In this document: in pieces, positions 15,084 through 17,498 of the stretch
How positions within the stretch are numbered: the stretch's first letter is position 1
Layout: each line of letters starts with the position of its first letter
From: Escherichia coli
GTDB lineage: Bacteria > Pseudomonadota > Gammaproteobacteria > Enterobacterales > Enterobacteriaceae
Direction: 5' to 3' (one strand)
Length of the DNA: 64,000 nt
Assembly (NCBI RefSeq): GCF_044324875.1
Contig: NZ_CP172185.1
Notes under the pieces: model-generated
The model's database searches: none
What the model was told of the DNA's origin: nothing
Seen by the model: the letters and a program-made list of their open reading frames with translations, nothing else
Translations under genes and position numbers: made by a program

Positions 15084-16622
15084 ATGACCAATAATCCCCC
15101 TTCAGCACAGATTAAGCCCGGCGAGTATGGTTTCCCCCTCAAGTTAAAAACCCGCTATGACAACTTTATTGGCGGCGAATGGGTAGCCCCTGCCGATGGT
15201 GAGTATTACCAGAACCTGACGCCGGTGACCGGGCAGCTGCTGTGCGAAGTGGCGTCTTCGGGCAAACGAGACATCGATCTGGCGCTGGATGCTGCGCACA
15301 AAGTGAAAGATAAATGGGCGCACACCTCGGTGCAGGATCGTGCGGCGATTCTGTTTAAGATTGCCGATCGAATGGAACAAAACCTCGAGCTGTTAGCGAC
15401 AGCTGAAACCTGGGATAACGGCAAACCCATTCGCGAAACCAGTGCTGCTGATGTACCGCTGGCGATTGACCATTTCCGCTATTTCGCCTCGTGTATTCGG
15501 GCGCAGGAAGGTGGGATCAGTGAAGTTGATAGCGAAACCGTGGCCTATCATTTCCATGAACCGTTAGGCGTGGTGGGGCAGATTATCCCGTGGAACTTCC
15601 CGCTGCTGATGGCGAGCTGGAAAATGGCCCCTGCGCTGGCGGCGGGCAACTGCGTGGTGCTGAAACCCGCACGGCTTACCCCGCTTTCTGTACTGCTGCT
15701 AATGGAAATCGTCGGTGATTTACTGCCGCCGGGCGTGGTGAACGTGGTCAACGGTGCAGGTGGGGAAATTGGCGAATATCTGGCGACCTCGAAACGCATC
15801 GCCAAAGTGGCGTTTACCGGCTCAACGGAAGTGGGTCAACAAATTATGCAATACGCCACGCAAAACATTATTCCGGTGACGCTGGAGCTGGGCGGCAAAT
15901 CGCCAAATATCTTCTTTGCTGACGTGATGGATGAAGAAGATGCCTTTTTTGATAAAGCGCTGGAAGGCTTTGCACTGTTTGCCTTTAACCAGGGCGAAGT
16001 TTGCACCTGTCCAAGCCGTGCTTTAGTGCAGGAGTCTATCTACGAACGCTTCATGGAACGCGCCATCCGCCGTGTTGAAAGTATTCGTAGCGGTAACCCG
16101 CTCGACAGCGTGACGCAAATGGGCGCGCAGGTTTCTCACGGGCAACTGGAAACCATCCTCAACTACATTGATATTGGTAAAAAAGAGGGCGCAGACGTGC
16201 TCACCGGCGGGCGGCGCAAGCTGCTGGAAGGAGAACTGAAAGACGGCTACTACCTCGAACCGACGATTCTGTTTGGTCAGAATAATATGCGCGTGTTCCA
16301 GGAAGAAATTTTTGGTCCGGTGCTGGCGGTGACCACCTTCAAAACGATGGAAGAAGCGCTGGAGCTGGCGAACGACACACAATATGGCCTGGGCGCGGGT
16401 GTCTGGAGCCGCAACGGTAATCTGGCCTATAAGATGGGGCGCGGCATTCAGGCTGGGCGCGTGTGGACCAACTGTTATCACGCTTACCCGGCACATGCGG
16501 CGTTTGGCGGCTACAAACAGTCGGGCATCGGACGCGAAACCCATAAGATGATGCTTGAGCATTACCAGCAAACCAAGTGCCTGCTGGTGAGCTATTCGGA
16601 TAAACCGTTGGGGCTGTTCTGA
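15084..16622 (+). CDS. aldB: Aldehyde dehydrogenase B
   Basis: Track ORF trimmed to ATG at 15084 preceded by aaggaga SD; [15 protein letters not shown]..., ALDH catalytic Cys region. Confidence 0.95.
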
Positions 16623-16653
16623 TATAAGAAGCTGGTCGCATTGGGTATTCATT

Positions 16654-16738
16654 GCCTGATGCGACGCTTACGCGTTTTATCATGCCTACGGGGACCTGAC
16701 CGTAGGCCGGATAAGGCGTACACGCCGCATCCGGCATA
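16654..16738. repeat. REP-type palindromic elements downstream of aldB
   Basis: gcctgatgcgacgcttacgcg ... ccgtaggccggataaggcgtacacgccgcatccggc. Confidence 0.6.
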
Positions 16739-17174
16739 AACAAAGCGCACGTTGTTACAATTTACGTTTTAAACCTACGTGCGCAATAACCCAATAACCC
16801 AGACTACGCCAACAGAAGTGCGTTTCTGGGGCGTGTTTTGCCAGGAGTTTAATCTCGCGTTTCGATGGTGAGCGGGCGAACCAGACCATAAATCACCATT
16901 GGCGTTCCGAGGCCAATCAGCAATAAACGGTAGATAATTGAAGGTTTAATACGCTTAATCTGTACTGTGGATGTTTTACTGGAGTTATTCATTAGTTTGG
17001 CCAATAGTTCCATTATTTCAATATGATAAGCCTCGCACTGTTGAAAAGCCAGGCTGCACATTTCAGAAAGTATATAAAAAACAATATGTCGTTATATAAA
17101 TAAGGAAATTGCACCGCATTATGGTATTTCATAATATGCGTTAATTGTTCTTTTCTATATTCTCTGAGGGAAAT

Positions 17175-17498
17175 ATGTTCCTGGATTATTTTGCATTGGG
17201 AGTGCTTATTTTTGTATTTCTGGTGATATTCTATGGGATTATTATTTTACATGATGTTCCCTACCTGATTGCTAAAAAACGTAATCATCCACATGCCGAC
17301 GCCATTCATGTTGCTGGTTGGGTAAGTCTTTTTACGTTACATGTTATCTGGCCATTTTTGTGGATTTGGGCCACGCTTTACCGCCCGGAGCGGGGATGGG
17401 GAATGCAAAACCATGACTCCTCCGTTGTGCAACTACAACAGCGTATTGCCGGGCTGGAGAAACAGCTCGCCGACATCAAATCCTCTTCTGCCGAGTAA
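17175..17498 (+). CDS. yiaW: Small inner-membrane protein, DUF3302 family (yibI paralog)
   Basis: Track ORF starts at TTG 17145; likely true start ATG 17175 after gaggg SD; 107 aa [21 protein letters not shown]. Confidence 0.85.

Follow-up and report, generated by a model that had tools for sequence, protein, structure and literature searches.

The 70-codon minus-strand open-reading frame (ORF) between aldB and yiaW in Escherichia coli is most likely an inert gene remnant, produced by a 171-bp in-frame deletion within a 104-codon gene; we give this reading a probability of roughly 80%. The remnant would no longer do the job of its parent, and at most it may occasionally be transcribed and translated as a 47-residue, single-helix peptide. 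The frame had been noticed in a 64,000-nt stretch of E. coli DNA (hereafter the window), where the original prediction left it as either a small membrane protein or a chance ORF.

A 70-codon frame in the aldB-yiaW spacer

The ORF lies in the 552-nt spacer between aldB, which ends at 16622, and yiaW (17175..17498). The gene order in the window is yiaY, aldB, yiaW, yiaV, with yiaU on the opposite strand, and is the reverse complement of the K-12 orientation. The ORF was confirmed in its predicted position and strand, and is initiated by an ATG codon:

16849..17061, minus strand: 70-codon ORF, from ATG 17061..17059 to the stop TAA 16851..16849

Its predicted product is MCSLAFQQCEAYHIEIMELLAKLMNNSSKTSTVQIKRIKPSIIYRLLLIGLGTPMVIYGLVRPLTIETRD. 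Two further in-frame ATGs lie inside the ORF, one at 17013 giving 54 codons, exactly as had been proposed for an internal start, and one at 16992 giving 47 codons. The K-12 ortholog, located by tblastn, is at NC_000913.3 3754542..3754754 on the plus strand, and in E. coli CFSAN061763 the region is 100% identical to the window. The hydrophobic stretch IIYRLLLIGLGTPMVIYGLV occupies residues 42-61 of the 70-residue product, and the maximum 19-residue Kyte-Doolittle mean of 1.71 is likewise reached from residue 42; the proposal that this segment is compatible with a single transmembrane helix stands, the segment being most of helix 1 of the parent protein described below. The original reading had also seen no convincing Shine-Dalgarno sequence, and our own sequence reading agrees, finding none upstream of the ATGs at 16992, 17013 and 17061. 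A minus-strand promoter and terminator scan gave nothing above shuffle expectation on the strand of the ORF. Among 5,000 first-order Markov randomisations of the spacer, 30% contained an ORF of 70 codons or more (18% if only ATG starts were counted), and the 70-codon length alone therefore means little.

An in-frame deletion between direct repeats

Alignment of yiaW regions from one genome per species revealed that E. whittamii and Escherichia sp. E1V33 carry an extra 171 nt inside the ORF, where the frame extends to 127 codons:

L010 2504..2887: 127-codon ORF of E. whittamii
L009 777..1160: 127-codon ORF of Escherichia sp. E1V33

When E. whittamii, E1V33 and MOD1-EC7003 are aligned with the window, K-12 and O157, the latter three all exhibit a clean 171-nt gap, equal to 57 codons and in frame, which joins V61 to R62 at window 16879/16878. 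In intact alleles an imperfect direct repeat stands on each side of the 171 bp, TACGGTCTGGTTTGC (encoding YGLVC) and TACAGCCTGGTCCGC (encoding YSLVR). The missing residues are 39-95 of the 104, and with them go the GYDxVxWN hairpin, helix 2 in its entirety and the GLWxYS motif, such that helix 1 is joined directly to the nine-residue tail RPLTIETRD. The parts of the window ORF on either side of the junction, and the junction itself, are as follows:

16876..16890, minus strand: deletion junction, codon 61 GTT (5' repeat) and codon 62 CGC (3' repeat)
16879..16941, minus strand: codons 41-61 (SIIYRLLLIGLGTPMVIYGLV), most of helix 1, as delimited by AlphaFold2, family alignment and hydropathy
16852..16878, minus strand: codons 62-70 (RPLTIETRD), C-terminal tail of the parent, with RPL conserved across the family

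The junction (window 16876-16881) occurs in two forms, GLV-R-PL in the window and K-12 and GLV-C-PL in O157 and others (alleles in L003, L097, L098 and L100), a pattern expected either if one deletion was followed by a T>C change or if deletions arose twice, independently, in the same repeat.

We propose that a stand-alone gene ancestrally sat between yiaU/yiaW and aldB, convergent with aldB, and specified an inner-membrane protein of 104 residues. In the lineage of most E. coli, 171 bp were then cut out, presumably by recombination or replication slippage at the imperfect 15-nt direct repeats, which removed the loop, the second, hydrophobic helix and the most conserved motifs, and left 47 codons made up of the N-terminus, helix 1 and the last nine residues. 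The 23 codons upstream just happen to be open in this strain, which yields the 70-codon ORF.

A different deletion is present in Escherichia sp. MOD1-EC7003 (L008 2741-2869), where the N-terminal ~60% of the gene has gone and a 42-codon C-terminal ORF is left. It arose independently, and suggests that Escherichia has lost this gene more than once.

Homologs of the full-length protein

The intact Escherichia protein (WP_001064341.1 / WP_001064340.1, and D9742_13975 in E1V33) is 104 aa long and is found at the same locus, on the same strand and with the same start codon as the window ORF, with which it shares the N-terminal motif (KRIKPSIIYRLLLIGLG.P) and the last nine residues; codons shared between the intact E. 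coli allele and the window ORF are 92-94% identical. When 1.84 billion cluster representatives were scanned by HMMER with the long form as query, 162 clusters were detected at E <= 1e-3, nearly all of them ~100 aa in length, in which member residues ~3-5 to ~95-99 aligned with query residues ~33-124. The motifs SxxYKLxxxGL..P, FGxxTVxWNG and GLWxYSxxRPL emerged from an alignment of 61 members, and the invariant or near-invariant columns G59, G88, L89 and W90 all fall inside the segment lost by E. coli. As the homologs are ~100 aa long and the most conserved columns are those in the lost segment, the length difference reflects a deletion and not an insertion. On these alignments the long form is ancestral, and the short form was derived from it by deletion.

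The 47-residue peptide itself finds family members outside Escherichia by BLASTP (E = 3e-10 for P0054 and 2e-11 for P0055), in alignments which cover residues 1-43 only, namely the N-terminus and helix 1. The window version fails to match the full-length architecture of the family, as the WN(G/D) hairpin and helix 2 are absent, and keeps helix 1 and the RPL tail. These homologies bear directly on the suggestion of a chance ORF, arisen in AT-rich intergenic DNA with no coding ancestry, which would be in keeping with the ease with which ORFs of equal length form in randomised spacers, with the missing Shine-Dalgarno sequence and with the lack of any Pfam or NCBIfam match. An ORF that aligns collinearly with an intact gene of this locus, and is homologous to full-length proteins of other species and genera across the 162 clusters, leaves a purely chance origin with almost no probability; for codons 24-70 such an origin is refuted, and only the 23-codon extension at the start of the ORF fits it.

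The AlphaFold2 model built on the family alignment (mean pLDDT 84.6) consists of a helix at residues 17-44 (40-67 in the 127-residue numbering), a beta-hairpin at 50-57 and a long helix at 59-95. From the basic N-terminus (KRIK) and the RP-rich tail, the parent is predicted to span the membrane twice with both termini inside (N-in, C-in), and in the single-span remnant the tail would consequently face the side of the membrane opposite to its original one. The suggestion of a small membrane protein is therefore right as to ancestry, as both frame and helix descend from a membrane-protein gene, yet what is present in the window is internally deleted and under relaxed constraint (see below). Scans of the 127-residue product and of the 61 family members against Pfam and NCBIfam gave nothing meaningful, a sequence-profile search of the PDB with the family returned 0 matches, Foldseek of the AlphaFold2 model against the PDB returned none at E <= 0.001, and an additional protein search with the family profile contributed no names or domains.

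The gene appears to be an old resident of the aldB locus. Enterobacterial homologs with 54-56% identity are convergent with aldB, including a 103-residue homolog (54% identical, L105) in another enterobacterium with the order avtA, orf, aldB. A 104-residue homolog in L088 sits between aldB and an ortholog of yiaU (86% identical), at a locus where yiaVW and hicAB are absent. Across the taxa compared no conserved partner gene was found, and the neighbouring genes differ. A LysR gene precedes the family gene in L088 and in L109/L110, and a functional link to this regulator was considered and rejected, as the LysR protein in L109 shares only 22% identity with YiaU and is thus a generic LysR protein instead of an ortholog. 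In L109 (4001-5297) and L110, the environmental homolog (46% identical) follows the LysR gene and overlaps the start of a 327-residue protein with a weak YrhK-like match, possibly an operon context which is absent from the enterobacteria.

The ancestral start and the yiaWV promoter

Three observations place the start of the gene at the innermost ATG. Family members have their first residue at the position of M24 and align only from about residue 30, the homolog in L088 has an in-frame TAA directly before the ATG equivalent to 16992, and in the intact E. coli gene PGAP places the start at this same ATG, giving 104 aa. The codons upstream behave differently: the extension is interrupted by stops at codon 7 in O157 and L100 and at codon 18 in L099, and codon 1 is GTG instead of ATG in several alleles. 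In L088 the non-coding DNA ahead of the homolog conserves part of the extension, TTATCATATTGAAATA, and the stretch before its ATG, TTATCATRTTGAAATA, is conserved in the same way. Judged by this comparison, the ancestral start is the ATG at 16992, and the 23 codons before it are 5'-UTR, unconserved as coding sequence. Both the 70-codon and the 54-codon readings thus include 5'-UTR, and the true remnant is 16849..16992:

16849..16992, minus strand: 47-codon core and true remnant, from the ancestral start M24 (as placed by homology) to the stop; PGAP WP_001066082.1
16993..17061, minus strand: 23-codon upstream extension, by the same comparison ancestral 5'-UTR

Frame-disrupting changes in close relatives had been named as what would speak against a coding ORF, and these do occur in the 23-codon extension, by way of the stops in O157 and others, whilst the 47-codon core is disrupted only sporadically.

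The DNA opposite the first codons of the ORF includes part of a published promoter. The yiaW/aldB spacer is listed by genomic SELEX as 'CAGACA-17-TATAAA yiaWV ... HNS' (Shimada et al. 2014, PMC3946193), which corresponds in the window to:

17050..17078, plus strand: yiaWV sigma-70 promoter, with -35 at 17050..17055, a 17-nt spacer and -10 TATAAA at 17073..17078

Alignment with K-12 shows that the -35 is CAGGCT in the window and CAGACA in K-12. The promoter and the initial codons of the 70-codon ORF share DNA, on opposite strands. Citrobacter, Pseudocitrobacter and relatives keep a single part of the aldB-yiaW spacer upstream of yiaW, 17070-17113 on the plus strand (80-88% identity over ~44 nt), which spans the -10 of the yiaWV promoter and the start of its 5'-UTR, and which may be a regulatory element.

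The DNA could in principle have been kept for a non-coding role, as the yiaWV promoter, as a site of H-NS nucleation or as a terminator of aldB read-through, with the frame itself incidental. Such a role would draw on the constitutive sigma-70 promoter, with its H-NS flag (PMC3946193), at the start of the ORF and on the conservation of 17070..17113 in Citrobacter and relatives, but this cross-genus element lies outside the 47-codon core, and nothing corresponding to that core (16849..16992) precedes yiaW in Citrobacter; the core also varies more than the promoter. Within the core, the sole terminator-like match is at the level expected from shuffling, and no Rfam family matches. We regard a non-coding reason for the retention of the core as very improbable, and prefer its reading as the residue of a deleted gene.

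Constraint on intact and truncated alleles

Intact and truncated alleles differ significantly in their pattern of substitution. The intact alleles of E. coli, E. whittamii and E1V33 exhibit dN/dS values of 0.09-0.13, rising to ~0.2 between an intact allele and the 54%-identical homolog, where dS is saturated, and they are by these ratios under purifying selection. Truncated alleles contain 7 synonymous and 13 non-synonymous changes, compared to 21 and 8 in the intact alleles (Fisher p = 0.018), and the pairwise pN/pS among them reaches 1.4. In this small sample the truncated alleles are accordingly seen to be under relaxed constraint, although their 7:13 ratio equates to a pN/pS of about 0.6 and 20 changes are too few to tell neutrality from weak constraint. 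Nucleotide diversity (pi) within the spacer peaks at 0.110, in the 5' region of the 47-codon remnant; the remnant itself has a value of 0.054, as opposed to 0.030 in the yiaW coding sequence and 0.029 in the yiaW promoter, and exceeds the flanking non-coding DNA in diversity, a comparison biased by the nine diverse truncated alleles having been picked by their spread of identity on the ORF itself.

These data weigh on whether the truncated ORF might still be a working gene, encoding a 47-residue (or 54-residue) single-pass membrane protein that was retained or re-purposed. For such a gene speak a frame open from the ancestral ATG in most alleles, a helix-1 core (codons 34-49) in which the nine truncated alleles vary only synonymously and which is therefore invariant as protein among those sampled, the presence of the allele in about 70% of complete E. 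coli genomes, and the calling of a protein by PGAP. The 47-codon frame is indeed open in nearly all of the ~3,800 carriers, but the low diversity of E. coli makes this openness indecisive. Non-synonymous changes outnumber synonymous ones, significantly unlike the intact gene, and the remnant is the most diverse part of the spacer after its own 5' region. Moreover, all strongly conserved family motifs except the N-terminal one are lost, no conservation of the short form is seen beyond E. coli, the region carries an H-NS-binding flag (PMC3946193), and there is neither a Shine-Dalgarno sequence nor a promoter-like site on the strand of the ORF, the former being weak evidence because the intact Escherichia gene lacks one too. 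Taken with the relaxed constraint, this makes a working gene unlikely. We consider it improbable, too, that the deletion created a new, expressed 47-residue membrane peptide kept by most E. coli; if true, the peptide would represent a small protein that arose when a larger one was truncated. The parent itself represents an unrecognised and widespread family of ~100-residue membrane proteins. A type I toxin was rejected, as no antisense RNA family (Rfam) and no Pfam or NCBIfam toxin match was found, and the ORF clearly descends from a larger gene.

Successive losses at the aldB locus

Across 5,426 complete E. coli genomes, the alleles of the locus were distributed as follows:

3,814 of 5,426 genomes: ORF region present
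28 of 5,426 genomes: deleted 171-bp segment present (intact gene)
about 1,600 of 5,426 genomes: no match to the ORF query

The short form is found only in E. coli; other Escherichia species have either the long form or a deletion of another kind, and the sequence of the 47-codon core is missing upstream of yiaW in Citrobacter and relatives. In E. whittamii, E1V33 and the 28 E. coli genomes, the intact gene sits between hicB/aldB and yiaW.

The other side of the ORF records the loss of a second, unrelated set of genes. Between the end of aldB and the stop codon of the ORF lie:

16630..16740, no strand assigned: REP/BIME-type palindromic repeats after aldB, with three sub-threshold Rfam naRNA4 (RF02564) matches
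16773..16852, plus strand: decayed 3' fragment of hicB, with an 8-nt duplication and a 12-nt deletion, identified by blastn and translation

The stretch 16630..16740 has many dispersed megablast places per genome (median 3). naRNA4 is a REP-derived family, and its sub-threshold matches, which lie outside the ORF, were the only ones in the Rfam scan. Window 16773..16880 shares 79% identity by blastn with the last ~84 nt of hicB and the DNA downstream of it in L005 and L006, and translation of the remnant gives TYVRNNP..DYANRSAFL..RVLPGV*. The fragment carries no annotation in the RefSeq records inspected. Intact hicA-hicB occupies the aldB site in some E. coli and in Escherichia sp. E1V33. Relative to this HicAB type II module (HicA_toxin PF07927, HicB_lk_antitox PF15919), the window keeps the last ~27 codons of hicB and the tail-to-tail overlap of stop codons, in which the stop of the fragment (16850..16852) overlaps that of the ORF on the opposite strand, as is likewise seen where hicAB and the gene are both intact (L089, L116). 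It differs from the module in having only a frame-broken 80-nt piece, with hicA and most of hicB gone and the ORF itself lying outside the module, and no intact HicB-domain (PF15919) frame is present at 16773..16852.

Genomes with the intact gene occur both with hicAB and without it (L092), which shows that hicAB was lost and the gene internally deleted in independent events. The loss of hicAB left the hicB 3' fragment against the stop codon of the ORF. The aldB-yiaW spacer displays successive losses, hicAB first and then the internal deletion, with the larger picture unchanged.

Further rearrangements were observed around the locus. In E. coli UID2309220031 and KOr019 (L005 and L006), in which the ORF region is absent, the order is aldB-hicA-hicB followed by genes for a GH127 glycoside hydrolase and an MFS transporter, which replace yiaW-yiaV-yiaU, and KOr019 has in addition a gene for a type I restriction endonuclease that separates aldB from hicA. 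IS1 is located next to or inside the ORF region in some strains, with associated deletions; in KMi012 (L007) and PSS-16 (L101) it joins the ORF region to yiaL/yiaK, with yiaW-yiaM removed. A second DUF3302 paralog of YiaW, ~73% identical, is found in E. coli and other Escherichia (L064, L067, L045, L066, L071), and is probably the yibI-yibH pair.

Annotation and significance

Existing annotation treats the frame in several ways. In the curated MG1655 record the interval between yiaW and aldB is empty, whilst PGAP labels the frame a hypothetical protein in most RefSeq E. coli genomes, inconsistently as 47, 51 or 67 aa from three start codons, and makes no call on it in O157. The 47-residue calls (WP_001066080.1 and WP_001066082.1) have the same extent as window 16849..16992. 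A search of 5.8 billion proteins with the 70-residue product returned 46 matches, restricted to E. coli and 38-115 aa in length, in which the N-termini are variable or frame-shifted and the C-terminal half is conserved, with sporadic frameshifted or extended variants of the ORF among them. One database protein, P0052 from Escherichia sp. R-CC3, fuses the C-terminal 42 residues of the ORF to an internal part of AldB, and most likely reflects faulty assembly or gene calling on a very short contig (374 nt). Pfam and NCBIfam scans of the 70-residue product gave no match, a literature search for the peptide or its WP accessions retrieved no paper containing either, and the smORFer supplement has no entry for the ORF.

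At 47 residues, with a single predicted helix and an intergenic site, the remnant resembles the validated small membrane proteins of E. coli (<=50 aa, Storz-lab), and like them it is missing from the curated K-12 annotation. For the small proteins from Storz-lab tagging and ribosome profiling, acceptance reportedly rested on ribosome-binding sites, on cross-genus conservation of the short ORF and on detection of the tagged protein. The window ORF, unlike these, is confined to E. coli, lacks a Shine-Dalgarno sequence, is under relaxed constraint and is the product of a deletion.

A label such as "deletion remnant of WP_001064341-type gene" would settle the inconsistent annotation of this frame in thousands of E. 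coli genomes, and would alert screens for small proteins to the trivial origin of this hydrophobic ORF. The parent gene, in turn, defines an uncharacterised family of ~100-residue membrane proteins without a Pfam model, for the study of which E. coli offers natural intact, deleted and absent alleles.
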